64,000 bases of DNA, from the NCBI GenBank assembly GCA_003990765.1, contig RBNJ01000013.1, positions 1 to 64,000 on the forward strand. Reading direction: 5' to 3'. The translations under genes and the position numbers were made by a program. Source of the DNA: Jimgerdemannia flammicorona (Eukaryota). The notes beneath the pieces were generated by a model, which was not told the DNA's origin, did no database searches, and saw only the letters and a list, made by a program, of their open reading frames with translations. This document shows positions 314-45,942 of this stretch, piece by piece; positions within the stretch are counted from its first letter, which is position 1; every line of letters begins with the position of its first letter.

Positions 314-3643
<3,330 letters not shown>

Positions 3644-3885
3644 TGTAATGGTGACCCCAGAATGATGACATTAGCATAGGAGATAGCCTTTCCTTACAAG
3701 CTACCAGATTGGAACATAAGAAGATCATATGGCATATGAGATGAGCAATGATGATCAACTGTGAGTCATTGTGACCACAGTATAAGCATCCTGAAGAATA
3801 TAAAAGAAGGATCAAGAAACCACAGTAGCAGCAATCAATAAGAACCACCAATCCCAAAATAGCTCAAAGACTTACCACAAATGAA

Positions 3886-4698
3886 ATGCCTGCTGCCCAC
3901 CAAACTTCAAGGTCAAGAAACCGCCAAGGTATCTCAGTTGAAGAAAGGATGTTCCAAGACATCAGAAGAGTCATAAGGACCCACTCAAGAAGGACTCCTA
4001 GTATCAACCTAGGTACTGCAGACCCCTATTACTTTATCTTCTACTGTCGTGAAATGGAAACAAGAATCACCATTGCTACCAAATACCTCCAAATATGGCA
4101 GGAGTATGAAATAGGAAACCTCCTCTACCAGGAGTTCCCACAGGCCAGCCCTCAAGAGCTACAAGATGCCACTCCCATGGACATATATGAGATAAGAATA
4201 GCCAAGAAGATCCGACATGTACCATGGTCGATCCCCAACTTAGAGTATGTTAGAGTCTCAGATTTCAAAGACCTGTTATTTTGCCATATCAATGTACTAG
4301 AAGCCAGGGTGACTACAGAAGCCTAGTCCACTATTACCCTCAATAGTGATGAAGTAGAAGACTTCTGGCACCCTATCCTCCAGGACAATCCAGACCAATT
4401 CCTGTAAGAGTTGATCTCAGTATTCTAAGGCCCAAGCATCTAGGTTCAATCTCCCCAAGACCCCACATTTGTCTCCTATTTTGTGGAAGAGAACCTCATA
4501 GACTGGAGAGCTTCAGATCTTGTTCCCAATTTTCCTGCCACTGAACATGATGATGTCATTGGCGATGATGTCATCCTGTATGATATCAAAGTACATGAAA
4601 TATATGACCTACATAATGAATTTACAGATCTCATCTCCTTTAGTGATGATGATGATGATGATGATGAAGCCCCTATGGTCCTGAACTTTCTGCTCTAA
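3886..4698 (+). pseudogene. LTR (U3)-encoded accessory ORF, ~270 aa, unknown function; four premature stops in this copy
   Basis: ORFs 3886-4326 and 4483-4698 are in one frame. The stops here (TAG/TAA) are CAG/CAA in sister LTRs. Homologous copies: 17020-17843, 18658-19466, 25924-26730 (+); 30936-31784, 38194-39042, 49071-49877, 56278-57083 (-). Confidence 0.85.
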
Positions 4699-4721
4699 GT
4701 TCTTTGTTATACTGAATAAAG

Positions 4722-4835
4722 CCAGCACTGGTATTTTGATGTAATACTGGATAATTCCAGCACTAGCATTCTGAGGTGATATGAAATTGTTCCAGCACCA
4801 GTATTCTGATATGACACTGAATTATACCAGCATCC
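4722..4835 (+). repeat. 35-bp tandem repeat (3 units plus a partial) in U3 between the accessory ORF and the TATA box
   Basis: CCAGCAC(T/C)(G/A)G(C/T)ATT.TGA...; 1-4 units in the different LTRs. Confidence 0.85.
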
Positions 4836-4937
4836 TGAATCTGTACAACTCTCAGTACCAACTCTGGAACTTAGTAGTTTTAGTTATTGGAATTTATATT
4901 TAGCTTTATATATTAGCAACCATTAAATTATATTTTG

Positions 4938-4970
4938 TATAAATACCCCTCTTATTTCCTCTGAAATAAA
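4938..4970 (+). promoter_or_regulatory. LTR TATA box and polyadenylation signal
   Basis: TATAAA 4938-4943 and AATAAA 4965-4970, conserved in all eight LTRs and in the LTR at 1-313. Confidence 0.65.
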
Positions 4971-5180
4971 GTCAGTTCCTCTCAGTACAATATATATACT
5001 TCCTTGCAAGCAATCTAAGAGATAACAAAATAGTTAAAGATAAGAAGTTTGAGGACTATAAGACCTTGGGAAGGCATTCCAATAAGAACTTGCTTATAAC
5101 AAACTTGAGTTAGTCTAAGAGATACACCTTGAAGAGAATCTGATATATTTGAAGGACTCAGTGACCACTACATGACAACT

Positions 5181-5197
5181 TGGTACCCATTGGCTGG
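5181..5197 (+). promoter_or_regulatory. Primer-binding site of copy A
   Basis: TGGTACCCATTGGCTGG, 3 nt after the LTR; copy C has TGGTGCCC, implying ancestral TGGCGCCC. Confidence 0.8.
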
Positions 5198-5619
5198 TGA
5201 TTCAAGACAAATCTCTCACTTTCAAGCTAAAAAATGAACAACCCCACAACAACTACTCTGACTACAAGAGTCACCCCTGCAAGAATTTAAGACAAGATGG
5301 AAATGCATCTCCCCACATTCTATGGATATACTACTGAAGAGTCAATCCTGATCTTCATTGAAGACTTTGAACAATTTACCACCGTATGAGTCCTTGGTAT
5401 AGATGCTCAATTGGCCCTTCTACCAGTCAGTCTCAGAGGACCTGCCAGAGACAAGTTCAATGCAGCCACCATTGCTGATGCTGGTGCAGCCAAACTTGCC
5501 AACATGAAGGCCTTTTTTTTTTTTTATTTTTTTTATTTTTTATTTTTTTTTTTTTTTATTTTTTTTTTTTATAGACTTGGACTCTGTCTTTATTACCAGT
5601 CTATGAATAAGTATACAAT

Positions 5620-8600
5620 ATCACCACCCACTATCCGATCCCCATAGGGGAGCCCCTCTCTATCTCTTCACAGATAAAGATCACTCTTTCACCAATGACT
5701 CCAACTCTCCCACCACTCTGACCATAGATTTTCTCTACCAAGCAGTACCTCCAACCCCCCTGTAGCCCCCAACTAAGCCACCAGCCTGTTAAGGTGTCCT
5801 CCATAAGGCACTGTCACCATGATAACCAGCTCCCTAAGCTCTGTTGCCTCTCATCCTCAAAAACAAATAGCCAGTGACTAGCCAGCCCAACCCAAATAGC
5901 CAATACCTAGCCTAAGGTAATCCACTCCATTCCTACCCCTCCTACCAATCAATCCCTCAGGTTCTCCCACCTTCCCCATACCACATCTCCCCTATGCCTC
6001 ACCCTCAAGTGGTCTCCAATAGCCCACCAAAAGTCCCCCAATACCTCACACTCTCCTAGCCAATGTTCTGGTATCTGTACAAAGCCCCCTTCCTGCCCCA
6101 CATTATGGCACTCCTTACAGTCAAAGCAACCCCCAATGATAAGGTGCCCTGAGTGGAAGTTGAGCATCACATTCCTCCTCAGCATACACCACCAGACCAT
6201 TCAGTACTTCAGTGGCATTCATTTTTTCACTGTAGCACTTTAGGTCCAAATACCATGCCAGTCCCACTCCTCTCCAATTCCAACTCCTTGCCAACCATTA
6301 GGCCACAGATCCTGGCCTGGTCCTCTTTGGCATTCTACTCCATTACCAATGTTGAACTCAAGTAAAGGTATGCTGCCCAGTAGTATACCATCCCATCTCC
6401 ACATCACCAGGTCCCAAGCCTCCTCCCCCTCATTCCCTTGCCAGCAAATACCAATGCAGTATGTCCCCTCTGCTATCCCCCATCAGAAACCTTTATATCA
6501 TAGTTGTACAGTGTTCTGAAGTCCAACCAATGAGAGAAGATCACCAGTCAAGCCTCTTGGTGATGATCACCTCTCCCAGACCTTCTGCAGTAGGGGAACC
6601 CAACCCCCTCCTCACAACTCCACCACCCTCTTAAGCCACTATGCCCTCAAGCAGTGTAGTCATTTGGGAAAGTCCACCAGTCCAAGACCACCTCTTGCCA
6701 CCAGTAGGGACAAGGTCTCCCAATCGATCTGACTCCATCTGCCAGCCCAAATCCATCCCTTGGTCACCTTCACTAATCTCTTCACCACCCAGGATGGGAA
6801 GTCCAGATGATAAGCCAAATACCACAGCTTCAGCAGCCAGTATACATTCAAAATTGAGATCCTTCCTGCCAGAGAAAAGTGTCTTCCCCCCCAATCTCTC
6901 AGGTCCTCCTCCCAAATTCCAATTCGCTGCTCCCACCACAGTCTGGGCAGAACAGACCCATAGATTGACAGATAGATGTCCAAGTACCACACCACCTCAC
7001 CAGTGGGGACAATTGTTCTAATAACTTCTCCTCCCACTAGGCTGTTGCCCAGCACCATTGTTTTACACTTGTGCTAATTCAGCTTCACCCCAGAGTACTC
7101 CTCATACCACTCCACTGTCTTCTTGAGCTCCTCGACATCAGCAATCGATCCCAAACCAACCACCATATCATCTGCAAAGGCTCCAACTTTCCAACCAATG
7201 CCATAGATAGAAAGCCCCACTATTCTCCACCGAATTCTGTCCATTAGGAGTTCTAAGGAAAGAGTATACAAAATCAGGGACAGTGGGTCCCCCTGGGGCA
7301 CCCCCCTATTCAGAGAGAAAGCTACCCCTCTATGCCCATTACACATGAGCGCAGCCCTACTCCCTTCCAGTAGGCTGACCATTGCTGACTGAAATTGAAC
7401 TAGAATCCCAATTCTATCTAATACTTTCATCAGCTAGATCTGTCGCACCTGGTCATAAGCCTTCTCCTGGCCCAAGAAGACAAGACACCCATTTAGTCCA
7501 CAGGCTCTAGCACCTTCAATAACTCCATATACCCAGGCTGTACCATCTCTAATGAGCCAACCACTCATGAAGCCCCTCTGCTCAATACCTACAATTTGCT
7601 GGACTACCTTCTGTAGTCTTGTGACCACCACCTTAGTCACCAACTTTCTGTCCATATCTAGCAACATTATTGGCTGCCAGTTCTTCCAATCTTCTCGCCT
7701 TCCTTTGTTCTTATAAAGAAGTGTCACCAGCCCAAGATCCTGCTCCCCCACCCATCTCCCTGACTGTAATATAAAGTCACACAGTACCGTCAACTCTCCT
7801 GTCATATCTGGGACTCTAACCATTCACTTCCAGAAGTCCCAGGGTAGGCCGTCCTCCCCAGGTGCTGTATCTGAGACTGTTATGGCAAGAACCTAGCAGA
7901 TCTCATCCTTCTTTACAGGCATCACCAGGTCACCTAGTCCCTTAGCTTGTGATGGATGCCAATCCTCTAATATTCAGTCAATGGCAGTAGCATCCACCCC
8001 ACCCTCCTCCTCACTCCACAATCCACTCCATCACTCCTTCAGTGATCCAAGGATATCCTGTATACTATGCACTAGTACACCATCCGAACCAAGTATCCCT
8101 TCCCACCACTGCTGTACCCTTCTTGCCCTAAGTATCCTCATGAGAAACTTGGAAGGCCTCTCCCCTTCCTCCAGCCTCTGCCAATGAAGCTGTGCCACCA
8201 GGCCTTGCATCCTTGCCTCTTCCTCTTCCTACAGCACCTGTTGTTGTTCCTCAACCTCCATCTTCATCCTCATTATTCTCCAATCCTCTTCTCCCTCCAC
8301 TATTGCCAGTCTCGCCCACTCCTCCAGGCGCCTAGCCAATCTAGTAGAAGCCCAATGCACTCTCTGCCTCCACTGCTTCCCAGCCTCTCTGCCAGCCTCA
8401 CTCTAGTACATCCTGGCCATCTCTTTCATCCTCCTCCACCGAACCCCAATTGAGGCCCCTTCCTGTCACCAGTTCTCCACTTTCAGCTAAATGTCTTTAG
8501 CCCACTCCTCCCACTGGGACTCATCATCTAACAAGGAGGAATTTAGGTACCAATGTCCAGGCCCATCTCCACTTTCCCCAAAATACCCCTGTCCCAAAAG

Positions 8601-9276
8601 GCCCCAGTGATCTGACCATGGATACCATTCTACCTCCAGCATTGCAGCCCCAACAGTTGGCCATCAGAATCCAGTCAATTCTTGTCCCCAGGCCTCCAGC
8701 CCAATGCATATATACCCTCCTGTCCCCCCAGTACTCCCTACCAGCATCTACCAGTGCTCTTAGTCTTTCGACTTCCTCCCACATTGCCAGCCCCCCACTT
8801 CTGCTCTCAGCACCCTATCCTCCATCAGTTCTATCCATCTGTATATCCTGAACCATATTGAAATCTCCCCCAAGCATATCCACCCCAGCCTCTGCAAGGA
8901 TCCCACTCTTCTGGAGACCCTTTACCCAATCTACATACTCCCCCCATATGGTAGAGCAGTAACAGGAGCCAACTGTAACTGGCTCCCAGCCTGCATGAAT
9001 CCACTCACCCCAAACCAGTCTCTCCCCCCAGCTCCTCACATCTCTTATCTCCCCTCTGCCTTTCTGAACCAGAATCCTGACCTTGCTATTCCAAATCGCC
9101 ATGCCACCCCATTCCTTTGTCCATTCTATCCTATCAGAATCATCTTCACACCTAACATCTTGCAAGAGGAAGAGATCAGCCTCCAATCCTTTCAGCCAAA
9201 TAAAAATGTTCCTACACCTAACAGCACCCCTTAGCCTATTTACGTTCAAAGAAAAAATGTTGGTTGTACTGTTCAT
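5620..9276 (-). pseudogene. LINE ORF2: APE endonuclease, reverse transcriptase, C-terminal Cys/His region (3' end approximate)
   Basis: IFSLNVNRL...DLFLLQD, GGDFN, TRIDWI; NWQPIMLLD..RKL, QRGF, QEKAYD, RGVPQGDPLS, AFADD. Confidence 0.92.
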
Positions 9277-9304
9277 AATGAAATACGATTTGTTATCAGT
9301 CAAT

Positions 9305-11331
9305 CTCTACTGCTCTATGCTTATCTCCTCCTATACTACATCCAAATTATGTTCTGCCATCACCTCCTCCTCTCCAGCCCTCTGAGCCTCCAATCCAGCC
9401 AACAGCTCGTTCATCTCTCCATTGGCCTTCTCCTCAAACTCCTCTCTATACTCAATACAAGCCTCCTACCAAAGCTGTAACCCATGATGCTTGTTCCAAC
9501 AGTACACAGCCCTCTCCCTAGCAATAACCACCATCTCTGCCTCCTGCTCCTTGTCCACCTCATACTCTTTCTCCTCCAGATACACCGTGAGAATTTCTGC
9601 CTTCAGTGCCATCACTACTCCTTCTCCCTGCAAAATTCGCACCCAGTGCTCATCCCCCATCACTTGCAAGTCCATCTCTCCCAACTCTTCTGCCATCAGA
9701 TTATTCATCATCCTGCATATCCAAAGTAGGTTCCCCACCTCCTTCCCTTCAGGGGTCACTGGCCTCCCTCTATCCAGCATTGTGGTGTCAGCTCTGGCAC
9801 TCACATCCTCATCCCACACCTCCGGGACATCCACCAGTTCCTCCTCTCCAGCCACTACTACATGTCCCCCATTCATCACCTCTGAAATGCCAAATTTCAC
9901 CTGATGGGTCCCCAGCATCATCACATCCTCCCCAGTCTTGTATCTGGAAGCCAGGCCATGCCTGATAAGAGGAGAAGGAGTGGGGGAGTTCTCCCATATC
10001 TCATCCCAAACCTCCAAGGTGCCATTAGCATATGGGTTGATAATCGTCACCTCCTTTACCTTCCCTGTCTCCACCCCAGCATTCCCACTTCTCTCACCAG
10101 CCCAGATGCTTGCTTTGGCCCCTTCCATGCTCATCATCTTGCTTGCATCCTCCTGTGGTCTGCTCCCCAGTTTAGCCAGCAGATCCTTCTATCTCTTCTA
10201 CCCCTGAGCCCTTTCCCACTGCACCTTGTCCACTCGAATCCTCTTTCCATCCACTACCTCCAGGTGTGTTGACTCCATGAAAACCTTCCAGGCCTTTGCT
10301 CACCACTCCACAGCTCTATCCAATTCTTCCAGCACTTCCAATAAATCCTCTTCCTTCTCTTCACTTCCTTTCACCCTCATCACCTTATATAAGATTGCTC
10401 CCCAAACCATCACCAAAGGCCAGTCCCTTGCCTTCTCAGTAGCTTCTTTCTCAGCCAGCTGAATCCTTACATCCACATTCCCAGTCCTGAGCATGGTCCC
10501 TTCTCAGACCCTAAATCTGATATCCACCACCTCTCCATACTCTGCCATAACATCCTTAACTCTCTTTCTCATCTCTATTGCCATCACCATGGGCACTCCT
10601 TTCACCAGCAGTTGGACCACCCTCAGATCCCATTTCAGACACCTCGTCATTGGAACACACACCTCTCCAACCACCAACCCAACCTTCAGTGCCTCCTCCA
10701 GTAGCTCAGCCTCCTCAAAACCCACCTTCACACCCTCCAGTCCCTTCAGAAACTTCACTAAAGCAGCTTCTACCACCTGCTTAGTGATAAGCCCCAGCAC
10801 CATTTTCACCGTCACCGCTAAGCCCTGGAAGCACAGTATAACTGCGAATACCAAGATTGATTTTTTGAGTAATGGGGCCACTGCCAGGCCCATCACACTA
10901 TCCACCAAATCTCCTTGTCTTCTAAGCCTCAGCCACTCAGTCTTGCCAACAGCCATCACATCTGGATTTTTTTCCAGATTAGCAGTCCCATCACTATCAG
11001 CAGTCATACTCCCCCCAGCCACTACTCCCCCAGCTCCACTGCCCTCTCTTCCAAGAGCCACTCCTCTATGCGCTGCCACCTTCTTGGTCTCCTTGCCCCT
11101 CCTCAGCCAGCCCTCCAGCCCTGATACCTGCTGCCTCCCCTTCACCATCTCTGCAAAGCTTGCCCTCCCAGACCCCTGTCCTCCACCAGTACCTCCACCT
11201 CTTTCTCATCCTCCCACCAGCAGCTCCCTCATGTCCTCCCCCAGGCCTGGGCCCCTCCCAACTTGCTGCCATTCAAAAGCACTTGGGCTGCCCTGCCCAG
11301 TACACACCTCAGATTGCCTATCGGTTGCCAT
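9305..11331 (-). pseudogene. LINE ORF1 (degenerate)
   Basis: ATG at 11331 (MATDRQSEV...), long E/G/V-rich frame fragments upstream of ORF2; the assignment is positional. Confidence 0.7.
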
Positions 11332-13293
11332 GTTGTTAGTCTCTTTACTCCAAAAATGATGTCGTGAGTGTCTTCTAAAGGTTGTGTAACCTGAATGATA
11401 CTGGAGAAAGATGCCAACATGAAGGCCTTCCTCAGAACAATATATTATACCGAAGAGATCAAGCAAGCTCTCAAGGATCAACTCAATACTATCTACCAGG
11501 GACTTAGTGAAGATCTCAACTCATTCTATACCCAAATCTGCTACCAGATTGTCTTGGCTGGCTATAATGACTGCCTCAAGGAACAAATAGTGGACTTAAC
11601 TTTCCTCAAAGGAGTTCACCCTGAAATTGCCCTAGCAATCTGGTCTACTCCAGCTGCACTGACCCTTGATCAGAAAGTGGTCTTTATATAGAGATATTGG
11701 ACTGCCAGACACTCTGCCAAATACTCAATAGAGAAAATAACCAGCATCAAGATGGAGCCATCAAAGCCAACTAGTATCTTACCCACCACAGTTGTAAACA
11801 GACAACCAACCCCACCTATCCCCAAGATAGCCAAAGCTGATCCAGTGGAAGAACTCGCCAAGCAGTTCGCTGAGATGACTGCACACCTTAGTGATGTTGT
11901 TAGAGAAGTCTGAAGCACTAACAGGAGACCAATGCAGAGATTTGCAGCTGCTATAGAAGAATGCAATATCACATGCTTCAGATGCAGAGAAGAAGGCCAC
12001 TATGCAAAGAATTGTATGACTGAAACAAGATGCAAAGCCCAACCAAGCAATGTTAGCAGAACCAGAGAACAAACCAATGCAGTAGTCATCAAGGAGATTG
12101 GTGATACTGATGATGAAGAATACTATGAGGAGCTTGAATTCTACCCTATTACTGAAGATACCAGAACCCAGTCCAAACCCTATGACAAGAAGAGCAACAG
12201 CAAGCCAGTTGAAAGACCAAAGAAGACACCAGCTATCACTATTCAAAGCAAGACCCAACCCGAGAAGATTGATCAAGATATAGAGTTGGATGAAGCTGCC
12301 CACCAAATCATTGAAGGCACTACTCCAGTCTCAGGAGAAAGCAAAAGCAAGAAGAAACAGAAGCTACACAAGACCAAGATCCACCAGTATGACATCTACA
12401 AGGACCTTAAGGAACAAAAGATCAATGCTACCTTTGAACAGCTAGCTGAAGTCCCTGCCTTCAGACAGCAGTTGAGAGTAGGACTTACAACTACTACCAA
12501 GAATCAAGAGTACAAGATTGTAGAAGCTCACAATATACAGAAAGAATCTGAGAACTTAGGTGAAGAATCTAAAGACCAGCACAAGACATCAGCCTATATC
12601 CCATGTCAGATCGAAAATTGTATCTTTGATGTCATCATTGATACTAGTGCTGGAGGATGTCTTATGAGCAAGAAGACAATTGACTGCCTAGGCTGGGACA
12701 TTGAAGAGTCCACCAAGATGTTCTATGTTACAGCAGATGGTATACAAGCTATCCCCCTTGGCAAAATCCAAGAAGTCCTCATCAAGATAGGAGGAGCTAC
12801 CATCTCAGTAGATGTGATTGTTACAAGCACCACCAACTATGGCATCCTCATTGACAACTAATGGCTCCACAAGGCTAAGGCCATCATTGACCTCAATGCC
12901 CAGAAGATGCAGATCAACTATAGAGGAAGAAAGATACAAGTCTCTATCAATGTCTACAAAGGAGTTCTACCAGACATAGAGGAAGGAGATGAAGAAGACA
13001 CAGAGGTCTTCATGCACTTGGTGAACAAGAACAAGAATAAGACACCCAAGCTCACAGATGAGCAGTGGTACAACAAGATCATTGATGGCTATACCCCTCA
13101 AGGAAGATGCCCCCATAGTACTAGGATGTACTGCTCTGAACACCTGAATGACTGCTGGTCCTATATCAGTGAAGTCAGGAAAATCTGCCAACAGAAACAT
13201 GAGCAAGAAGCTGCTGAAGCCAAAGAAGATGACCAGCCCCCAGAGCTCCAAGCTGATAGCAATGATGAGGAGGAACAAGAATCAGACATCACC

Positions 13294-13704
13294 CTCAAGA
13301 TCAAGAAGTTTCACCCTGAAGCCAAGATCTCAGAATATAAAACTGAAGGAGCCATAGGAATAGACCTTGCCAGCATTCCAGATACTATCCTTGAACCACA
13401 GACCACCACTCTACTTGGCACTGGAATTGGAGTCAAGCTGCCAGAGAACTATGCCAGATTTATCAAAACCAGGAGCAGTCTGACCAAAAGCAAAATCTCA
13501 GTTAAAGGAGAAGTAATTGACCCTGATTACACTGGTGAGATCTTTCTCATAGTCAGAAATCACAACTACACCACCCCCTTCGAAGTCAAGAAGTATGACA
13601 GGATTGGCCAAATACTGATCTACGAAATCAAGAAGCCCAAGATCATTGAAGCCATTGAACTCATCAAGACCAAGAGAGGAGAACAAGGCTTTGGATCTAC
13701 TGGA
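13294..13704 (+). other. Trimeric-type dUTPase domain between protease and RT
   Basis: GAIGIDL, TRSSL, G(G/E)VIDPDYTGEI, DRIGQ, RGEQGFGSTG: all five dUTPase motifs, present in B, C, D and element 0. Confidence 0.95.
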
Positions 13705-15217
13705 AGAGGAGCCTATACTGCTATCAAGATTACCAAACTCAAGCATAAGAAAGATAAGGACCAGAATAAGCACACATATATTATTGGAGAAAACTTTTCC
13801 CTGGAGGAATAACTTCTCAAGATTCTGTACCAGAATGAAGAAGTACTTGTTACAGACTTCAAGGATATCCACAATCAAGAACCTAAGTACTACCATGAAG
13901 TTGACACTGGTGATACCAAGCCCATCTACCAGAAAGTCAGATACATATCACCAGCCTACAGAGAGTGGCTGTGAGCAGAACTCAAGGAAATGGAAGAAGC
14001 TGGGATCATCAAGCAAGCTATCAGCCCCTGGGCCTCACCCATTGTCCTTGCCCTGAAGAAAGGAAGCAAGCCTGGAGAGTTTGTGCCAAGACTCTGCATT
14101 GACTACAGGAAGCTCAATGCCATCACCAAGAAGGATAGGCAGCTCTTGCCAAATATTCAAGAAATCCTTACCACCCTTGGAAGTGAAGCCAAATACTACA
14201 CCACCTTGGATCTGTTCTCAGACTTCCATCAGATTGGTCTCACTTAAGATGCCAGTGAGAAATCAGCCTTCATCATACCTGATACCACCTATATCTACCT
14301 GCTAATGCCATTTGGAATGTGCAATGCCCCAGCAAGTTTTCAGCGAATGATGAACAGAGTCTTCAGCAACGAGATTGGAAAATAGCTCTTTATCTATGTT
14401 GATGATGTGATCATCTTCAGCAACACTATACAGGAATATGTCAATCACATACAGCTAGCCCTCAAGAAGCTCAAGGAGCATGGCCTCTACATCAAGCCTA
14501 AAAAATACAAGTTTGCAGCTCAAGAAATCACCTACCTAGGACACCTCATCAACAAGACCAGAATCCACACAGACCCCATGAAGATTGAGGCTGTTGCAGT
14601 CTACTCAAGACCCAGAACAACTACAGAAGTCCACACCTTCCTTGGACTGGCCAGCTACTACAGAAGATTCATCAAAGGATACTCCAATATTGCAGCACCT
14701 ATCTATGAGCTACTGAAGAAAGAGACCAAATTCGAATGGACTAAGGAGTGCCAAGAAATCTTCAATGAACTCAAGACCAGGTTGACCCAAGCACCTATCC
14801 TCAGAAGACCAGACTGGAACCTAGAATTCATCCTGCAGACAGACATGAGTGCTATAGGACTTAGAGCAGTCCTAGCTCAGAAGAAAGATGGACATGAATA
14901 TGTCATCTCCTATGCAAGCCAAGATACTTGCGGAGCAGAACAGAACTATGAGTCATGCAAGCTCAAATGCTTAGCAGTAGTTTGGGCAGTAGACAAGTTC
15001 CACTACTATCTAGCCAGGAAATACTTCACCATTCAAACAGACCACTCTGCTCTTGCCTGGCTATTCCACACTCTGAACCCCAAAAGAATATATACCAGAT
15101 AGATCTACAGGCTGCAAGAATATGACTGTACTGTCAAGTACTGCTCAGAAAAGACCAACACCAATGCTGATACACTCTCAAGGACACCCCGAAACACCCC
15201 CATTAAGACTATTCAAT

Positions 15218-16464
15218 ATGAATAAGGAGCTATACTATGGATTAATCAGCTACCTTAGGCAGCAGAAGATGCCCAACCACCTTGAATCTTGGACAATCAA
15301 CATCATCAACCAGACTTGGAAACAGTTTGAATTAGACAACACTATACTCAGAAAAGGAGGAAAGCTAGTAATATCTGAATACAAGAAGTATTAAGTAATG
15401 AAGGAAGTATATGAGCAAGGACACTTAGGAGGAACCAAGTTATATGACAAAGTAAGAAGAACTATATGGTGGCCCAAGATAGAAGAAGACCTGCACCAAT
15501 TTGTCAAAGGGTGTGACAAGTGCCAAAAACAGAAACAAGATCAGCAAGATCAGGCATCTGGATTATCAAGAATTGAGCCTATCTCCTTCCACCATATTGC
15601 AATGGATATCATTGGACCACTACCAGTAACACTATCAGGAAATCACTATATTATAGTTATTGTAGACCTCTTCACCAAATAGATAGAGGCAGGAGCATTA
15701 CAAGAAGCCAATGCCCTCTCTATAGCTGACTTCCTGCACTAAGAAATCATCTGCCACTACAAGACACCAAAGCAAATCACAACAGACCACAGAACAGAAT
15801 TTGTCAATAGATTCCATGAGATAATATATCAGAAATACAAGATCCAGTACATTACAACCACTGTGTACCACCCTCAAGGAAATAGACAGACAGAGAGAAC
15901 CAACAAAACCCTCAAGAACATTCTAGCAAAGATCTCAGAGACATATGAGAATTGGGATAACTATCTCCCAACTGCCCTCTCTGTCCTATGAGATATATGG
16001 TCACAGAGCACACACTTTACTCCAAGAGAGCTGCTCTTCAGAGAAGAAGATTCTGATGGAACCTCAGCTACGAATCTAGACCTAACTTGGAGACAGGTTG
16101 ATGCAGAAATCTGGAGACTACACCAAATCAGGAAGAAGGCTGAAGATTACATCACCAAGTCACAAGCACTGATAAAGAAGAATGCAGAAAAGAATCACAA
16201 GGCCCTAGAACCCATCCAAATCAGAGAAAAGGTTCTACTATATTGAAATATGATAGAAGCCTCATGGTTGCAAAAACTAGAGCCCAAATTGGAAGGACCC
16301 TTCTATATGCAAGATACAAGGAAACCACTTTCTGGCTTAGAAAAATCTCAGAGGCCATACTGCCTACTACAGTACATAGGAACAGACTCAAGAAGTACCA
16401 CAAACCTATACAAGAGAAGCAAAATGTGATGACCACCCATGAGGTTCTAGTCTACAAATCATAA
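15218..16464 (+). pseudogene. Copy A integrase, separate ORF (HHCC, DDE core, GPF module, no chromodomain)
   Basis: MNKELYY start; H..GHLG...CDKCQ; MDIIGPLP; TTD.GTEF; YHPQGNGQTERTN; PKWEGPFY. Confidence 0.92.
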
Positions 16465-16777
16465 CAGCATGTCCTGTGACCAGCAGACTATCTATCTGGA
16501 CCATTCTCTAAGGGATATGGTACTGGCAACTACTTATCTATGAGACTTTCAAAGTCAGAGGAGTTCGAACTGTCAACTGATTGGTCAAGATCAGAATCAG
16601 GCCCTTGCTCTATATGAAGGGAGCAACCCTTCACCATCATGCCAAAATACAAAGGGAAGACACCAGCCTAAAAATACCACTTTTTGACCCCTTGCCAGAG
16701 GTTATAAGATCAGCAAATTTTTCAGGACTGAACCAATGAATAAGGATGCTCAGGAAGATCCTTATTCAGGAGGAAGA

Positions 16778-18321
16778 TATAATGGTGACCCCAGAATGAT
16801 GACATTAGCACAGGAGACAGCCTTTTCTTGCAAGCTACTAGATCAGAACACAAGAAGATCATACAGCATATGAGATGAGCAATGATGACCAACTGTGAGT
16901 CATTATGATCACAGTATAAGCATCCTGAAGAATATAAAAGAAGGATCAAGGAATCACAGTAGCAGCAACCAACAAGAACCACCAATCCCAAAATAGCTCA
17001 AAGACTTACCACAAACAAAATGCCTGCTGCCCACCAAACCTCAAGGTCAAGGAATCACTAAGATATCTCAGTCAAAGAAAGGATATTCCAAGACATCAGA
17101 AGAGTCATGAGGACCTGCTCAAGAAGGACTCCTAGTGTCAACCTGGGTACTGCAGACCCCTATCACTTTATCCTCTACTACCATGAAATGGAAACAAGGA
17201 TAACCATTGCTACTGAATGTCTCCAAATATGGTAGGAGTATGAAATAGAAAACCTCCTCTACTGGGAGTTTCCACAGGCCAGCCCTCAAGAGCTATAAGA
17301 TGCCACTCCCATGGACATATGTGAGACAAAAATAGCTAAGAAGATCCATCAGATCTTCAGGCATGCACCATGGTCAATCCCCAACTTAGAGTATATTAGA
17401 GTCTCAGATTTCAGAGATCTGTCATCTCACTGTATCAATACATAGAAGCCAAGGTGGCTACAGAAGCCCAGCCCACTATCACCCTCAATAGTGATGAAGT
17501 AGGAGACTTCTGGCACTCTATCCTTCAGGACAACCCAGACCAATTCCTATAAGGGTTGATCTCAGTATTCCAAGACCCAAGCATCTGGATTTGATCTCCC
17601 CAAGACCCCACATTTGTCCCCTATTTTGTGGAAGAGAACCTCATAGACTGGAGAGCTCCAGATCTTGTTCCCAATTTCCCCACTGCTGAACATGATGATA
17701 TCATCAGCAATGACATCATCCTGTGTGACATTAAAGTATGCGAAACACGTGACCTATATGATGAATTTGCAGATCTCATCTCCTTCAGTGATAATGATGA
17801 TAATGATGATGAAGCCCCCATGGTCCTGAACTTTCTGCTCTAAGTTCTTTATTATACTGAATAATACCAGCACCAGTATTTTGATGTAATACTAGATAAT
17901 TCCAGCACTGGCATTTGAGGTGACATGAAATTGTTCCAGCACTAATATTCTGATGTGATACTGAATTATACCAGTATCCTGAACCTGTAAAACCCTCAGT
18001 ACTGACTCTGGAACTTAGTAGTTTTAGTTATTGGAATTTATATTTAGCTTTATATCTTAGCAACCATTGAATTATATTTTGTATAAATACCCCTCTTATT
18101 TCCTCTAAAATAAAGTCAGTTCCTCTCAGTACAATACACACACTTCCTTGCAAGCAATCTAAGAGATAACAAGATAGTTAAAGATAAGAAGTTTGAGGAC
18201 TATAAGATCTTGGGAAGGCACTCTAATAAGAACTTGCTTATTACAAACTTGAGTTAGTCTAAGAGATATACCTTGAAGAGAATCTGACATATTTGAAGGA
18301 CTCAGCAACTACTATATGACA
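16778..18321 (+). repeat. 3' LTR of copy A
   Basis: TATAATGG (TG changed to TA)...ATGACA, directly after the PPT. Confidence 0.95.
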
Positions 18322-18415
18322 GTATCTTTCTTCTTATCTAAGATAGTGGTAAACTTCTGAACTGGACAGCAGTCTCTTCTTCTAATTTCCTTTACTATGT
18401 CTTCTAGATAAGCAG
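18322..18415 (-). mobile_element. Element 0 gag fragment between copies A and B
   Basis: Joins in frame to 3643 across the TSD (KKKD|TYYIYRKEDHY) and continues to 27348. Confidence 0.75.
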
Positions 18416-21400
18416 TATAATAGTGACTTCAGAATGATAACATCAATACAAAAGACAGTCTTTCCTTATAAGCCATCAGATTGGAGTACAAGAAGATCAT
18501 ATAGCATATGAGATGAGTAATAATGCCCAACTGTGAGTCATTGTGACCACAGTTCAGATATCTTGAAGAATATAAAAGAAGGATCAAGGAACTACAGTAG
18601 TAGCAACCAACAAGATTCACCAATCTCAAAATAGCTTAAAGACTTACCACAAATGAAATGCCTGCTGCTCACCAAATCTCAAGGTCAAGGAACTGCCAAG
18701 GCATCTCAGTCAAAGAAAGAATATTCCAAGACATCAGAAGAGCCATGAGGACCTACTCAAGAAGGACTCCTAGTATCAATCTGAGTACTAGTGACCCTTA
18801 TTATTATATTCTCTATCACTGTAAAATGGAAACAAAGATCACTATTGCTATCAAATATCTCCAAATATAACAGAAGTATGAAATAGGAAACCTCTTCTGC
18901 TGGGAGTTCCCACAGGCCAGCCTCCAAGAGTTATAAGATATCACTCCTATGGATATATATATGTGAAGCAAGGATAGCTAAGAAGATCTATCAGATCTTC
19001 AGGCATGCACCATAGTTGATCCCCAACTTAGAGTATGTTAAAGTCTCAGATTTCAGAAATCTATCATCCTGCCATATCAATGTACTAGAAACCAGAGTAG
19101 CTACAGAAGCCTAGTCTACTATCTCTCAATAGTGATGAAGTAGAAAACTTCTGACATCCCATCCTCCAGGATAACCCAGACCAATTCCTGCAAGGATTGA
19201 TCTCAGTATTCTAAGGCCCAAGTATCCAGATTAGACCTCTCAAAGACCCCACATTTGTCCCCTATTTTGTAGAAGAGAACCTCATAGACTGAAGAGCCCC
19301 AGACCTTCTTCCTGCCATCACTAAACATGATAACATCATTGATGATGATGTCATCCTGCACAATATTGAAGCATATGAAATGTGCAATAATGACAAATTC
19401 ACAGATCTCATCTCCTTCAGTGATGATAAGAATGAAGCCCCTATGGTCTTGAACATTCTGCTCTAAAGTTCTTTAGTTACACTGAGTTATGCCAATATTG
19501 GTATTCTGATGTAATACTGAGTTATACCAGTACTGGCATTCTGACATAATACTGAATTATACTAACATTCTGAACCTGTACAACCATCAGTACTGACTCT
19601 GGAACTTAGCAGTTTTTTCTGTCCTGGCATTTCATTTTAGTTATTGAAATTTATATTTAGCTTTATATGTATCTTAGCAACTATTGAATTATATTTTGTA
19701 TAAATACTCCTCTTATTTCCTCTGAAATAAAGTCAGTCCATTCAGTCTATTCAGCCCATTCAGTCTATTTAGTCCATTCAGTCTACTCAGTGCAATATAC
19801 ACACTTCCTTGCAAGCAATCTAAAAGATAACAAGATAGTTTAAAGATAAGAAGTTTGAGGACTATAAAACCTTGAGAAGGCACTCCAATAAGAACTTGCT
19901 TATAACAAACTTGAGTTAGTCTAAGAGATACACATTGAAGAGAATCTGGTGTATTTGAAGGACTCAGTGACTACTATGTGACAACTTGGTACCCATTGGC
20001 TGGTGATTCAAGACAAATCCCTCACTTTCAAGCTAAAAAATAAATAACCCCCACAATAACTACCCTGACTACAAGAGTCACTCCTACAAGAATTCAAGAT
20101 AAGATAGAAATATGTCTCTCCACATTCTATAGATATACTACTGAAGAGTTAATCCTGACCTTCATTGAAGACTTTGAATAATTTGCCACCATATGAGCTC
20201 TTACTGTAGATACACAATTGGCCCTTCTATTAGTCTGCCTCAGAGGACCTACTAGAGGTAAGTTTAATGTAGCCACTATTGCTGATAATGGTGCAGCCAA
20301 ACTTGCCAATATGAAGGCCTTTCTCAGAACAACATACTATACTGAAGAGATCAAGCAAGCTCTCAAGAATCAACTCAACACTATTTGCCAGAGACTTAGT
20401 GAAGATCTCAACTCATTCTATATCTGAATCTGCCACCAGATTGTCTTGGCTGACTATAATGATACTCTCAAGGAACAAATAGCAGATTCAACCTTTCTCA
20501 AAGGAGTTTACCCTGAAATTGCTCTAGCAATCTGGTCTACTCCAGCTATACTAACCCTTGATCAGAAAGTGGTCTTTATACAGAGATATTGGACTGCCAG
20601 ACACCCTGCTGAATACTTAATGGAGAAAATAACTGGTATCAAGATGGAGTTATATATCAAAGCCAACTAGTATCATACTTGCTATAGTTGTAAATAGACA
20701 ACCAACCCCACCTACTCTCAAGGTAGCCAAAGCTGACCCAGTGGAGGAGCTTGCCAAGCAGTTCACCGAGATGACAGTATACCTTAGTAATGTTGTTAGA
20801 GAAGTCTGAAGTGCCAATAGGAGACCAATGCAGAGATGTACAGCTACTACAGAAGAATACAATATTACATGCTTTAGATGTAGAGAAGAAGGCCACTATA
20901 TAAAGAATTGCATGACTAAAACAAGATGCAAAGCCCAACTAAGTAATGCTAGCAGAACCAGAGAACAAACTAATACAGTAGTCATCAAGGAGATTGGTAA
21001 TACTGATGATAAAGAATACTATGAAGAGCTTAAATTCTACCCTGCTATTGAAGATATCAGAACCTGGTCCAAGCCCTATGATAAGAAGAGCAACAACAAG
21101 CCAGTTGGAAGACCAAAAAAGACCCCAGCTGTCACTATTCAAAGCAAGACTCAATCTGAGGAGATTGATCAAGATATGGAGTTAGATGAAGCTGCCTATC
21201 AAATTGTTGAAGGCACTACTCCAGTCTCAGGAGAAAGTAAAAGTAAGAAAGAACAGAAGCTGTGCAAGACCAAGACCCACCAGTATGATATCTACAAGGA
21301 CAAAAGATTAATGCTACTTTTGGATAGCTAGCCAAAGTCTCTGCCTTCAGACAGCAGTTGAGAGTAGGACTTACAACTACTGCCAAGAATCAAGAGTATA

Positions 21401-24400
21401 AGATTGTAGAAGCTCACAATGCACAGGAAGAATCTGAAAACTCAGATGAAGAATCTGAAGACCAGTACAAGACATCAGCCTATATCTCATATCAGATTGA
21501 AGACTATATCTTTGATGTCATCATTGATACTGATACTGGAGGATGCCTTATAAGCAAGAAAGCAATTGACTGCCTAGCCTGGGACATTGAAGAGTCCACC
21601 AAGATGGTCTATATTATAGTAGATGGTACATGAGCTACCTCTCTTGACAAAATCTGAGAAGTCTCTATCAAGATAGGAGGAGCTACCATCTCAGTAGATG
21701 TAATTGTTACAAATACCACCAACTATGATATCCTCATTGGCAACCAATGGCTTCACAAGGCCAAGGCCATCATTGACCTCAATGCTCAGAAGATGCAGAT
21801 CAACTATAGAGGAAGAAAGGTACAAGTCTCTATCAATGTCCACAAAGGAGTCCTATCAGACATGGAGGAAGAAGATGAAGAGGACACAGAGGTCTTCATA
21901 TACTTGGTGAACAAGAACAAGAACAAGACACTCAAGCTAACAGATAAGCAGTGGTATAATAAGATTATTGATGGCTATGCCCATCAAGGAAGATGCCCCC
22001 ATGGTACTAGGATGTACTGCTCTGAACACCTGAATGACTGCTAGTCCTATATCAGTGAAGTCAGGAAAATCCACCAATAGAAATATGAGCAAGAAGCCAC
22101 CAAAGCAAAAAGGAAAGCTGAAGAAGATGATCAGCTCTCAGAGCTTCAAGCTGACAGTGATAATGAGGAGGAACAAGAACTAGATATCACTCTTAAGGTT
22201 AAGAAGTTCTACCCTGAAGCCAAGATTCTAGAATATAAGACTGAAAGAGCTATAGGAATAGACCTTGCCAGCATTCAAGATGCTACCCTTGAACCACAGA
22301 CCACCACCCTACTTGGCACTGGAATTGGAGTCAAGCTGCCAGAGAACTATGCTGAAATTATCAAGATCAGAAGCAGTCTGGCCAAAAGAAAAATCTCAGT
22401 TAAAGGAGGAGTAATTGACCCTGATTATACTGGTGAGATCTTTCTCATAGTCAGGAATCACAACCCCACCACCCCATTTGAAGTCAAGAAGCATGACAGG
22501 ATTGGTCAGATGCTGATCCATGAAATCAAAAAACCCAAGATCACTGAAGCCATCAAACTCATCAAGACCAAGAGAGGAGAATAAGGCTTTGGATCCACTG
22601 AAAAAGGAGCCTATACCACCACCAAGATTACCAAACTTGAACATAAGAAGAACAAGGACCAGAACAAGCACACATATACTATCAGAGAAAACTTTTCCCT
22701 AGAAGAACAACTTCTCAAGATCCTACACCAGAATGAAGGAGTACTTGCTATAGACTTCAGGAATATCCACAATCAAGAACCCAAGTACTACTATGAAGTT
22801 AACACTGGTGATATGTACTAAGCCCATCTACCAGAAAGCCAGACCCATACCATCTGTCTACAGAGAATGGCTACAAGCAGAACTTAAGAAAATGGAAGAA
22901 GCCAGAATCATCAAGCAAGCTATCAGTCTCTGGACTTCACCCATTGTCCTCACTCTAAAGAAAGAAAGCAAGCCTAGAGAGTTCGTACTAAGACTTTGCA
23001 TTGACTACAGAAAGCTCAATGCCATCACCAAGAAGGATAGGCAGCTCTTGCCAAATATTCAAGAAATCCTCACCATTCTTGGAAGTGAAGCCAAATACTA
23101 TACTACCTTGGATCTGTTCTCAAGCTTCCATCAGATTGGTCTCACTCAAGATGCCAGTGAGAAATCAGCCTTCATCACACCTGATGCCATCTATATCTAC
23201 CTGAAAATGCCATTTGGAATGTGCAATGCCCTAGTAAGTTTCTAGTAAATGATGAACAGAGTCTTCAGCAATGAGATTGGAAAATAGCTCTTTGTCTATG
23301 TTGATGATATAATCATCTTTAGCAATACTATATGGAAATATGTCAATCATATATAGCTTGCCCTCAAGAAGCTCAAGGAGCATGGCCTTTACATTAAGCC
23401 CAAGAAATACAAGTTTGCAGCTCAAGAAATCACCTATCTAGGACACCTCATCAACCAGACTGGAATCTACACAGACTCCATAAAGATTGAGGCTATTGTA
23501 GTCTACCCAAGACCCAGAATAACCACAGAAGTCCATGCCTTCTTTGGACTGACCAGCTACTACAGAAGATTCATCAAAAGATACTCCAATATTGCAGCAC
23601 CTATCTATGAGCTACTGAAGAAGGAAACCAAATTCAAATAGACCAAGAAACACCAAGAAACCTTTAATGAACTCAAGACCAGGTTGACCCAAGCACCTAT
23701 CCTCAGAAGACCAGATTGGAATCTAGAATTCATCCTGCAGACAGATGCAAGTACTATAGGACTTAGAGCAGTCCTAGCTCAGAAGAAAGGTGGATATGAA
23801 TATGTCATCTTCTGTGCAAGCTGAGGTACCCATGGAGCAGAACAGAACTATGAGTCATATAAGCTTAAATGCTTAGCAGTAGTTTGAGCAGTAGACAAGT
23901 TTCACTACTATCTAGCCAGGAAACACTTCACCATTCAAACAGACCATTCCACTCTTGCCTGGCTATTCTACACTCTGAACTCCAAAGGAATATATATCAG
24001 ATAGATCTACAGGCTGTAAGAGTATGACTGTACTATTAAGTACTACTCTGGAAAAACCAACACCAATGCTGATGTACTCTCAAAGACACTCTGAAATACC
24101 CCCATCAAGATTACTCAACATGAATAAGGAGTTATACTATAGATTAATCAGCTATCTTGGGTAGCAGAAGATGTCCAGCCACCTTGAACTCTAAATAATC
24201 ACCATCATCAACCAGACTTGGAAACAGTTTGAACTAGACAACACTACACTCAGAAAAGGAGAAAAGCTAGTAATACCTGAACTCAAGAAGTATCAAGTAA
24301 TGAAGAAAGTACATGAGCAAGGATACCTAGGAGGAACCAATATATACAATAAGATAAGAAGAACCATATAGTGGCCCAAGATGGAAGAAGACCTGCACCA

Positions 24401-27347
24401 ATTTGTTAAAGGGTATGACAAGTGCCAAAAACAGAAATAATATCAGCAAGACCAGGTACTCAGGTTATCAAGAATTGAGCCTATCCTCTTCCACCACATC
24501 ACAATAGATATCATTGGGCCACTACCAGTAATACTATCAGAAAACTACTATATTATAGTTATTGTAGACCTCTTTACCAAATGGATAGAAGCAGGAGCAT
24601 TATAAGTCAATGTCCTCTCTATAGCTGACTTTCTGCACTAAGAAATCATCTGCCACTATAAGACACCAAAGCAAATCACAACAGACTGTAGTACAGAATT
24701 TGTCAATAGATTCTATGAGATAATGTATCAGAAATACAAGATCCAGTACATCAAAACCACTACATACCACCCTCAAGGAAATGGACAGACAGAGAGAACC
24801 AATAAAATTCTCAAGAACATCCTAGCAAAGATCTCAGAGACATATGAGAATTGGGATAATTATCTCCCAACTGCCCTCTCTGTTCTATAAGATATATGGT
24901 CACAGAGTATACACTTTATCTCAAGGGAACTGCTCTTTGGAGAAGAAGATTCTGATAGAACCTCAGCTACAAATCTAGATCTAACTTAGAGATAGGTCAA
25001 TACAGAAATCCAGAGACTACATCAAATCAGGAAGAAGGCTGAAGATTATATCATCAAGTCACAAGTGCTGATAAGAAAGAATACAAAAAAGAATCACAAG
25101 ACCCTAGAACTCATCCAAATTGGAGAAAAGGTCCTACTATATTGAAATATAGTAGAAGCCTCATGATTGCAAAAACTGGAGCCCAAATGGGAAGGACCCT
25201 TCTATGTATATGCAAAATATCAAGAGAACTACCTTCTGGCTTAGAAAAATCTCAGAGACCATACTGCCTACTATAGTACACAGGAACAGACTCAAGAAGT
25301 ACTACAAACCTATATAAGAGAAGCAAAACATAATAACCACCCATGAGGTTCTAGTCTGCAAATCATAACAGCATGTCCCATAACTAGCAGACTATCTGTC
25401 TGGACCATTCTCTAAGAGATACAGTACTAATAACTACTTATCCATAAGACTTTCGAAGCTAGAGAAGTTTGAACCATCAACTGATTGATCAATATCAGAA
25501 TCAGGTCCTTGCTCTATATGAAGAGAGTGACCCTTCACCATTATGCCAAAATACATAGGAAAGATACTAGCCCATAAACACCACTTTTCGATCCCTTATC
25601 AGAGATTATGGGATTAGCAAATTTTTCAGGACTGGACCAATGAATAAGGATGCTCAAGAAGATCCTTATTCAGGAGAAAGATATAATGGTGACCCCAGAA
25701 TGATGATATCAGCACAAGAGACAGCCTTTTCTTACAAGCTACCAGATCAGAGCACAAGAAGATCATACAGCATATGAGATGAGTAATGATGACCAACTGT
25801 GAGTCATTGTGACCACAGTTTAGATATCTTGAGAAATATAAAAGAAGGATCAAGGAACTGCAGTAGCAGCAACCAACAAGACCCACTAATCTCAAAATAG
25901 CTCAAAGACTTACCACAAATGAAATGCCTGCTGCTTGCTAAACCTCAAGATCAAGGAACCACTAAGATATCTCAGTTGAAGAAAGGATGTTCCAAGACAT
26001 CAGAAGAGCCATAAGGACCCACTCAAGAAGGACTCTTAGTGTCAACCTGAATACTAGTGACCCTTATTATTATATTTTCTACTGCTATGAAATGGAAAAA
26101 ATGATCACTATTACTATCAAATATCTCTAAATATGGTAGAAGTATAAAATAGAAAACCTTCTCTGCCAGGAGTTCCCACAGGTCAGTCTCCAAGAGTTAC
26201 AAGATGCCACTCTCATGGATATATGTGAAGTAAGGACAGCTAAGAAGATTCATCAGATCTTCAGGCATGCACTATGATCAATCTCCAACTTAAAGTATAT
26301 TAGAGTCTCAGATTTCAGAGACCTGTCATCCCACCATATCAATACACTAGAAACCAGGGTAGCTACAGAAGCCCAGTCCACTATCACTCTCAATAGTGAT
26401 GAAGTAGAAGACTTCTGGCATCCCATCCTTCAGGACAACCCAGACCAATTCCTACAAGAATTGATCTCAGTATTCCAAGGCCCAAGCATCCAGGTTAGAC
26501 CTCCCCAAGACTCCACATTTGTCTCCTATTTTGTGGAAGAGAACCTCATAGACTGGAGAGCCCCAGACCTCCTTCCTGTCACCATCAAATATAATGATGT
26601 CATTGTTAATGATATCATTCTGTATGACATTGAAGCATGTGAAATATGTAATGACAATAAATTCACAGATCTCATCTCCTTCAGTGACAATAAGGATGAA
26701 GCCCCTATGGTCTTGAACATTCTGCTCTGAAGTTCTTTGGTTACACTGAGTTATGCCAGTACTGGCATTCTGACATACATAACACTGAATTATACCAGTA
26801 TCCTGAATCTGTACAACTATTAGTGCTAACTCTGGAACTTAGCAGTTTTTCCTGTCCTGGTATTTTATTTTAGTTATTGGAATTTATATTTAGCTTTATA
26901 TCTTAGTAACAATTGAATTATATTTTATATAAATACTCCTCTTATTTCCTCTGAAATAAAGTCAGTCCATTCAGTCCATTCAGTCCATTTAGTCCATTCA
27001 GTCCATTCAGTCCATTCAGTCCATTCAGTCCATTTAGTCTATTCAGTCCATTTAGTCCATTTAGTTCATCCAGTCTATTCAGTCTATTCAGTCTATTTAG
27101 TCCATTCAGTCCATTCAGTTTATTCAGTCCATTCAGTCTATTCAGTCTACTCAGTACAATATACACACTTTCTTACAAGCAATCTAAAAGATAACAAGAC
27201 AGTTTAAAGATAAGAAGTTTGAGGACTATAAGATCTTAGGAAGGCACTCCAATAAGAACTTGCTTATAACAAACTTGAGTTAGTCTAAGAGATACACCTT
27301 GAAGAGAATCTGGTGTATTTAAAGAACTCAGCAACTACTATATGACA
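18416..27347 (+). mobile_element. Ty3/Gypsy copy B (full length)
   Basis: LTRs 18416-19983 and 25682-27347; TSD GCAG (18412-18415) and GTAG (27348-27351); PBS at 19987; polyprotein ~20040-24127; integrase 24120-25368. Confidence 0.96.
26963..27151 (+). repeat. 9-bp tandem repeat (CAGTCCATT) x21 in the 3' LTR of B
   Basis: Directly visible; only 6 units in the 5' LTR of B (19734-19787). Confidence 0.95.
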
Positions 27348-45941: not shown

Positions 45942-45942
45942 A

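Follow-up and report, generated by a model that had tools for sequence, protein, structure and literature searches.

We analysed a 64,000-nucleotide (nt) stretch of the Jimgerdemannia flammicorona genome (GenBank assembly GCA_003990765.1, contig RBNJ01000013.1, positions 1 to 64,000; hereafter the window), which holds four full-length copies (A to D) of a single long terminal repeat (LTR) retrotransposon family, each measuring about 8.8 kb and bounded by LTRs of about 1.53-1.57 kb, and a fragment of a related element (element 0). The LTR termini read TGTAA...ATGACA (TG...CA), and they are accompanied by a polypurine tract (AGGAGGAAGA), by 4-bp target duplications (GTAT, G(C/T)AG, ATAT and CTAA) and, in copy A, by a TGG resembling a primer-binding site 3 nt past the 5' LTR. 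Since each copy has a distinct 4-bp flanking duplication, the copies represent four separate integrations, and a source carrying the junction described below integrated at least four times. Pfam assigned zf-CCHC, aspartyl protease (PR), dUTPase, RVT_1 and RT_RNaseH domains to the translation P0001 of the first open reading frame (ORF1), with dUTPase between PR and reverse transcriptase (RT), and assigned only Integrase_H2C2, rve and zf-H2C2 to P0123, an integrase (IN) of the same family; no chromodomain was found on P0123 by Pfam, and PF00385 was absent from the separately encoded INs listed. By every structural test except the placement of IN outside Pol, the window element is a Ty3/gypsy retrotransposon.

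The exception lies at the boundary between RNase H (RH) and IN, where all four copies carry CATGAATAA. In each of them, the frame with the RH motif (NADxLSR) terminates at the TAA of ATGAATAA, the final ORF1 codons being CAU GAA UAA, and from the ATG located 5 nt upstream of that stop, the +1 frame carries IN homology (MNKELYYGL..., HHCC, DDE). A search of the window with TCAAyATGAATAAGrAG (up to 3 mismatches) returned 5 matches against 0.53 expected, a number reached in 0 of 100 shuffles; four of these are the junctions, at the positions that a first-pass annotation made from the letters alone had given for copies A to D, and the fifth (2681-2697, minus strand) is not a junction. The same annotation had IN beginning at ATG 15218 in the +1 frame, and the homology does begin there, +1 to RH. 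It had counted 12 codons from LSR to the ORF1 stop; the stop is where it was placed, but the count is 13 (R1257 to stop X1271 of P0001). Its single frame from Gag to RH stands as a reading register but not as an open frame, copy A having 8 in-frame stops in Gag-RH before the junction. In element 0, the junction reads ATAAATAA within CATAAATAA, a version of CATGAATAA that has ATA in place of ATG, and IN once more lies in the +1 frame; both points had been noted before, and we refine them by placing the fragment on the minus strand and in a lineage of its own. Its 64.5% identity to copy D includes many transversions, which marks element 0 as a separate, related and more diverged lineage.

No copy in the window is intact. 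Besides the stops in its Gag-RH register, copy A has 5 stops and one frame change (near 16318) in the IN register, and copies B, C and D have as many defects or more. The copies differ from one another at 10-13% of sites, 92-95% of the differences being transitions, and changes private to one copy are dominated by C>T (538) and G>A (395), as where TGG has become TAG at a conserved Trp that copy D retains. The two LTRs within copy D match each other at only 87%, about as well as two different copies do. From this divergence and the excess of transitions it follows that most differences arose after insertion, from near-identical sources, and that, for the source junction, the four copies count in practice as a single witness rather than four independent ones. 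Measured against an unmutated relative (locus L013, see below), the order of mutation was CpG > CpA > CpC. Most of the divergence is thus cytosine hypermutation after insertion, which looks like repeat-induced point mutation (RIP) or like deamination of methylated repeats; classical RIP of Neurospora prefers CpA, from which the CpG preference seen here differs. A ciliate-type alternative genetic code was rejected, as an ORF list built with table 6 left the frames unclean and the stops are explained by C-to-T and G-to-A hypermutation.

To the loci of the window we added related loci from metagenome contigs, collected in a single scan that returned 80 loci, 22 of them with a match reaching IN residue 1 (20 distinct, the pairs L005/L006 and L010/L011 being identical). 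The stop and frame change between RH and IN occur in the window and in 22/22 of these loci, so that inspecting the junction in intact and related elements, the check proposed in the first-pass annotation, gave the same split architecture in all 22. L013 is an unmutated member of the window's own family, with 83-85.5% nt identity to the window copies, the same CATGAATAA and an open IN ORF of 415 codons counted from the ATG; the L013-type IN (P0123) is 84% identical to the broken translation of copy A. Long open ORFs were also present in L010/L011 (ORF1 of at least 1577-1746 codons, IN of 418) and in L005, L007, L024 and L026.

Protein searches gave the same picture from both sides of the junction. 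Of the 120 best proteins in the RT-RH listing, those closest by identity (43-52%) were 12 that bear dUTPase, and an rve or Integrase_H2C2 domain was found in 0 of these 12; five full-length dUTPase-bearing relatives end 13-14 residues past ...LSR, as in the window, and two end after 25-26. On the IN side, stand-alone proteins of 371-448 amino acids (aa) exist, and the Met of MN(K/R)ELYYGL is invariant in 7/7 and 15/15 aligned sequences. Eleven further cluster representatives align from their own residue 1-6 to that Met, all 11 starting with MN or MD; Met stands in the same column in 0 of 13 rows of the fused outgroup. No close fused relative was found: fused proteins reached at most 34% identity at 69% coverage or more, with one at 40% over 44% of the query, and in an exhaustive IN search against 1.84 billion cluster representatives, proteins longer than 900 aa reached at most 37% identity, with matches beginning at query residue 49 or later. 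Nor did these searches show unmutated close copies with RH and IN in one frame, the observation that the first-pass annotation had named as speaking against its reading. Further away, at 34 loci with 28-38% IN identity, the RH motif was located in 23, and in 18 of the 23 it shares the IN frame with no stop between, which agrees with the earlier statement that the window element departs from the usual fused Pol. A scan of IMG/VR with the IN alignment gave one distant locus at 30% identity, which was not used. There is also a second group of Gag-PR-RT-RH proteins without dUTPase or IN domain (P0043, P0048, P0051), which continue past ADALSR for 170 to more than 300 Cys/His-rich residues (...CDIENHH.H.YC..CKRNLPYGT..H.C...).

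On an IN tree of 34 rows (hand-picked from the search results, midpoint root only), 20 split INs were separated from 14 fused INs by a long branch with 100/99 support. Pairs of related split elements gave dN/dS values of 0.08-0.17 (IN ORFs) and 0.03-0.19 (ORF1 tails) at dS of 0.7-1.8, and both ORFs are under purifying selection. Because L013, the IN-less dUTPase relatives, the stand-alone INs, the tree, the start-Met column and the dN/dS values agree, the split between RH and IN belongs to the family and its clade and did not arise through decay, as the first-pass annotation had proposed; intact relatives keep it. Judged by sequence, the window copies belong to a clade whose IN is predicted to lie outside the Pol polyprotein, in a separate ORF with an AUG that overlaps or abuts the ORF1 stop.

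The geometry of this junction was compared across the 22 loci. An ATG stands at IN residue 1 in 22/22, and the ORF1 stop begins within 5 nt of it in 21/22, in the arrangements listed in Table 1 (where the offset is that of the first base of the stop from the A of the ATG). IN is +1 to ORF1 in 4 loci (the +5 and +8 classes) and -1 in the 18 loci of the remaining classes. What the first-pass annotation had called a conserved start/stop overlap is therefore conserved as an ATG near the stop across the relatives, while ATGAATAA itself is kept in one sub-lineage only. Junction classes are intermixed on the IN tree, along which the junction type changes repeatedly: the sister of L010 (ATGA) is L007 (TGATG), and the two rows with ATGnnTAR do not pair with each other. 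In the nine ATGA loci with a readable last ORF1 codon (7 distinct), this codon is GAA, CAA or AAA and never the synonym ending in G, and the seven stops of the TAATG or TGATG (TRATG) class are all TAA or TGA, never TAG. The choice of ORF1 codon and stop thus yields to the AUG and preserves it.

We regard coupled termination-reinitiation as the probable best explanation of how IN is made. It is favoured because AUG and stop-to-AUG distance are invariant while the frame and the exact overlap vary, which is a signature of translational coupling; of the three mechanisms offered in the first-pass annotation (termination-reinitiation, a +1 frameshift or a subgenomic RNA), it is the one that the comparative data favour. 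ORF1 (Gag-PR-dUTPase-RT-RH) ends at the natural RH/IN domain boundary, and some of the terminating ribosomes would remain on the full-length RNA and restart at the AUG a few nt away. Free IN made in this way would amount to a fraction of Gag-RT, and it would join the particle or the cDNA in trans, with no covalent link to Gag, by the separate route into particles that the first-pass annotation had supposed, its arrival at the reverse-transcription complex perhaps helped by synthesis on the same RNA. With somewhat less confidence, and only a little above even, we propose that these elements form an undescribed LTR clade with a bicistronic genomic RNA, in which IN is made by restart at the RH/IN boundary, is never part of Gag-Pol and is recruited in trans, and in which the efficiency of restart replaces the gag/pol frameshift as the control of dosage.

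Several observations weigh against restart. The whole case for it is comparative, and ORF1 is very long (about 1280-1900 codons), while restart after long ORFs is normally rare. The UGGGA motif of the termination upstream ribosomal binding site (TURBS) was present within 120 nt upstream of the ATG in only 1/19 junctions; the 75 nt upstream showed no unusual structure in ATGnnTAR junctions (z of +1.25 to +1.92) or ATGA junctions (z of -0.67 to +1.40), and the consensus fold of nine mixed junctions was negligible (-0.34 kcal/mol). These scans for UGGGA and for upstream folds revealed nothing in the window's sub-lineage that resembles the cis elements on which known systems depend. A comparison with Rfam gave only a chance-level match to a long non-coding RNA (E 0.25) for window positions 14800-15600, and none at the gathering score for six related loci. 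A strong upstream hairpin, of 13 bp, was seen only in the TRATG sub-clade, where it finishes about 6 nt short of the stop (fold z of -1.4 to -5.1); its pairing reaches 97%, both sides have changed in 4 of the 13 pairs (as in GGCUCGG/CCGAGCC vs CGUCUCC/GGAGACG), and its covariation score was matched in 0/500 shuffles. This hairpin was derived from one of the six sequences that it describes, which represent essentially two lineages. L026 has a different, 8-bp hairpin in the same place.

It is unlikely, in our estimate, that IN is translated from a messenger of its own, whether spliced or subgenomic, or through an internal entry site, with the closeness of stop and start reflecting genome compaction only. 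Spliced RNA serves retroviruses and gypsy-type elements for the expression of downstream genes, and the want of a TURBS-like motif or upstream structure in the window's sub-lineage would fit such a route. It also gains from a conserved third ORF (ORF3; 166-256 codons, motif FL..Y/F....P.AI..L..V) that lies past or overlaps the IN end in many relatives. ORF3 sequences match one another in BLASTP with E-values of 1e-5 to 1e-22, two representatives scanned (L010, L024) have no Pfam match, and the first ATG lies 26 to more than 400 nt before the IN stop or, in L001, 116 nt after it. Because this overlap is loose, another expression route, such as a spliced RNA, must exist in those elements, and the route used for ORF3 could serve IN too, a further point against restart. 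The window's family lacks ORF3, and L013 has only about 320 nt between the IN stop and the 3' LTR. Compaction alone, however, leaves unexplained why the stop falls within 5 nt of the ATG in nearly every locus, in four overlap types and both frames, and why the last codon and stop of ORF1 always preserve the ATG; moreover, the 30 nt that precede the ATG in L001 lack an AG dinucleotide, and thus a splice acceptor directly upstream.

A programmed frameshift at or near the ORF1 stop, yielding a Gag-Pol-IN fusion (+1 at GAA-UAA-G in the window lineage, -1 in most relatives), seems to us a poorer candidate still. Recoding is the usual means by which retroelements set protein ratios, and +1 shifting at stop codons is known from antizyme and Euplotes. 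Upstream of the ATG, the IN frame stays open for 3-144 nt, and in 7/18 loci the overlap includes X_XXY_YYZ heptamers in the ORF1 frame; in the L019 group, for instance, C_CCU_UUC falls in the GPPF codons and is included in the 3' arm of the TRATG hairpin. A -1 shift may still operate at the heptamer-bearing loci, and this too counts against restart. Yet the frame relation is not constant, the +1 and -1 loci being intermixed on the tree; no such heptamer was found in 11/18 loci, those that do occur coincide for the most part with conserved GP(P)F codons, and the open overlap measures just 3 nt in L017 and 18 nt in L026. The shift heptamers of Ty1 and Ty3 do not occur at the window junction, and although no AUG is required for a frameshift, the AUG never varies and is preserved by the codon choice of ORF1. 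Transcriptional slippage was set aside, there being no conserved homopolymer run at the junctions. That the split is simply a defect, in a non-autonomous family using IN supplied in trans by fused-Pol elements, is very improbable and largely refuted: every window copy is dead and non-autonomous LTR families exist, but both ORFs are long and open in many relatives, dN/dS is low over dS of up to 1.8, and the split forms make up one well-supported clade with no close fused relative found.

LTR elements and retroviruses are taught as delivering IN as the tail of Gag-Pol, and a clade under purifying selection that would make IN as a free protein puts the generality of this rule in doubt and prompts one to ask how IN finds its way to the reverse-transcription complex when no covalent tether holds it. 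If termination-reinitiation is correct, the eukaryotic systems known to use it would gain an LTR retroelement, the first with this mechanism; the junction would be a compact and evolutionarily flexible signal, and the elements would offer a natural system for studying restart after an ORF of 1300-1900 codons. A practical consequence is that annotation pipelines will take such elements for frameshifted or degenerate ones and call Pol wrongly.

Table 1. Coordinates of the LTR elements in the window, and junction classes, hairpins and third ORFs in related loci.
Feature	Sequence	Positions	Strand	Details
Copy A	window	3644-18321	+	split at 5513-11412 by a 5.9 kb non-LTR element
Copy A, 5' part	window	3644-5512	+	5' LTR 3644-5177 (TG...CA); Gag ATG at 5235
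Copy A, target duplication	window	3640-3643, 18322-18325		GTAT
Copy A, remaining ORF1	window	11428-15225	+	Gag CCHC, PR, dUTPase, RT, RH in a single register; ends at TAA 15223-15225
Copy A, junction ATGAATAA	window	15218-15225	+	IN start ATG 15218-15220, ORF1 stop TAA 15223-15225 (AUGnnUAA); search motif 15213-15229
Copy A, IN ORF	window	15218-16464	+	H2C2 zinc finger, DDE core, GPF module; +1 to ORF1
Copy A, 3' LTR	window	16777-18321	+	polypurine tract AGGAGGAAGA before it
Copy B	window	18416-27347	+	LTRs 18416-19983, 25681-27347; flanks GCAG/GTAG
Copy B, ORF1	window	20041-24127	+	
Copy B, junction ATGAATAA	window	24120-24127	+	search motif 24115-24131
Copy B, IN	window	24120-25368	+	
Copy C	window	30455-39284	-	LTRs 37717-39284, 30455-32027; target duplication ATAT
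Copy C, ORF1	window	37659-33570	-	
Copy C, junction ATGAATAA	window	33577-33570	-	search motif 33566-33582
Copy C, IN	window	33577-32340	-	
Copy D	window	48559-57325	-	LTRs 55801-57325, 48559-50120; target duplication CTAA
Copy D, ORF1	window	55743-51662	-	
Copy D, junction ATGAATAA	window	51669-51662	-	search motif 51658-51674
Copy D, IN	window	51669-50433	-	
Element 0	window	310-2079	-	fragment: end of RT-RH and first ~36 nt of IN; junction 346-339
Junction ATGnnTAR	L001, L008, L013			offset +5; 3 loci
Junction ATGA	L004, L005, L006, L010, L011, L015, L017, L028, L029, L031			offset +1; 10 loci; L031 decayed
Junction TAATG or TGATG	L007, L019, L022, L023, L024, L025, L026			offset -2; 7 loci; L020 is one more TGATG, beyond the 22
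Junction TGAtcATG (TGAnnATG)	L021			offset -5; 1 locus
Junction at offset +8	L009			1 locus; decayed, AT-rich
TRATG hairpin	L019	2761-2791		
TRATG hairpin	L022	140-170		
TRATG hairpin	L023	419-449		
TRATG hairpin	L024	1801-1831		
TRATG hairpin	L025	259-289		
TRATG hairpin	L020			
ORF3	L010	5951-6649		
ORF3	L011	6458-7156		
ORF3	L001	7129-7701		
ORF3	L008	5756-6253		
ORF3	L021	2403-3119		
ORF3	L022	1315-2001		
ORF3	L024	3012-3779		
ORF3	L026	2551-3252		

The non-LTR retroelement that interrupts copy A (5513-11412, minus strand) resembles a long interspersed nuclear element and sits in the Gag region. It is bounded by a 15-bp target duplication (GCCAACATGAAGGCC, at 5498-5512 and 11413-11427), has a poly(A) tail that appears as poly-T on the plus strand, and gives RVT_1 matches at 7074-7823 (minus strand). 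Its plus strand is strongly C-rich (GC skew of -0.4 to -0.5 at a GC content of about 0.5), and, unlike the LTR copies, it appears little touched by C-to-T mutation. Decayed Gag/PR-like fragments of related elements were detected with tblastn and P0014 (33-36% identity, many stops) at 2678-3430 and 27341-27766, both on the minus strand, the former probably part of element 0. The region between copies C and D (39300-48500) is very AT-rich (GC 0.24-0.38) and may consist of older, more heavily mutated repeats. The flank at 59800-64000 is GC-rich (0.49-0.54) and apparently single-copy; it contains a dihydroxy-acid dehydratase gene fragment (ILVD_EDD_N, E 1e-21) at 63458-63763 (plus strand) and a 321-codon open frame at 59857-60819 (minus strand) with no family match. 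The C-to-T mutation aimed at repeats, the non-LTR element with its RVT_1 match and this ILVD_EDD fragment are in keeping with a fungal host.

In the open-access literature, we found no paper on restart, or on a separate IN ORF coupled by stop and start, in an LTR retrotransposon; the window family would bring together a known type of element and a known mechanism of translation, at a site for which neither is on record. Among canonical Ty3/gypsy elements, Ty3 uses a +1 shift at GAG3/POL3 and Tf1 has one ORF. The window element shares with them the LTRs, the 4-bp target duplication, the polypurine tract, the Gag CCHC motif and the order PR-RT-RH-IN, and has Gag and Pol in one frame as in Tf1, but IN is the C-terminal part of Pol in those elements and a separate ORF here.

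The comparisons that follow draw on excerpts of the cited papers. Gypsy elements of fungi with dUTPase between PR and RT, as in the window family, include PosPlaTy3-5 of Postia placenta, Phanerochaete elements and Tmt1 of Tuber (PMC2864245); compared by description only, they differ in that the excerpts mention no separate IN ORF, and Tmt1 is described as a chromovirus (PMC12581995), whereas the window-family IN has no chromodomain match. Elements of bdelloid rotifers likewise have dUTPase between PR and RT, with IN described as included in pol (PMC5408684). Caulimoviridae are reverse-transcribing relatives of Ty3/gypsy elements that express consecutive ORFs from one RNA by reinitiation (PMC3542737, PMC10275272), but they need a viral transactivator (TAV), of which no counterpart is evident here, and have no integrase. 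Among retrotransposons, the likeness is to SART1, a non-LTR element in which ORF1 and ORF2 are coupled through UAAUG (Kojima et al. 2005, as cited in PMC10275272) and the only retrotransposon named in the excerpts of that 2023 review. The second protein is there made by stop-start coupling as well, but the SART1 junction separates a Gag-like ORF1 from the whole of Pol, whereas the split described here falls inside Pol, between RH and IN.

The junction types themselves recur in viruses with proven stop-restart. Caliciviruses use AUGnnUGA, UAAUG or AUGA, and AUGucUGA of rabbit haemorrhagic disease virus has the same geometry as ATGAATAA (PMC3542737). AUGnnUGA, UAAUG and AUGA junctions are thus common to the elements described here and to the TURBS systems of calicivirus VP1/VP2 and influenza B M1/BM2, which differ in their reliance on TURBS motif 1 (complementary to 18S rRNA helix 26), scarce at the junctions examined here. 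Victoriviruses use AUGA, AUGnnUAG or UAGnnAUG (PMC3542737), and together with the hypovirus CHV1 they establish that stop-restart works in fungi (PMC10275272). The overlap patterns of the victorivirus (Totiviridae) coat protein/RNA polymerase junction (CP/RdRp), for example that of Helminthosporium victoriae virus 190S, as well as UAAUG of CHV1 match those of the split elements, and victoriviruses further share with them what are probably fungal hosts and an enzyme ORF downstream of a long structural ORF on the same full-length RNA, in either frame. Victoriviruses are RNA viruses in which restart was shown by experiment and needs an upstream sequence or pseudoknot; here, the RNA is that of an LTR retrotransposon, the downstream ORF encodes integrase, an upstream element is seen in one sub-clade only, and restart is what we infer from the conserved spacing of stop and AUG.

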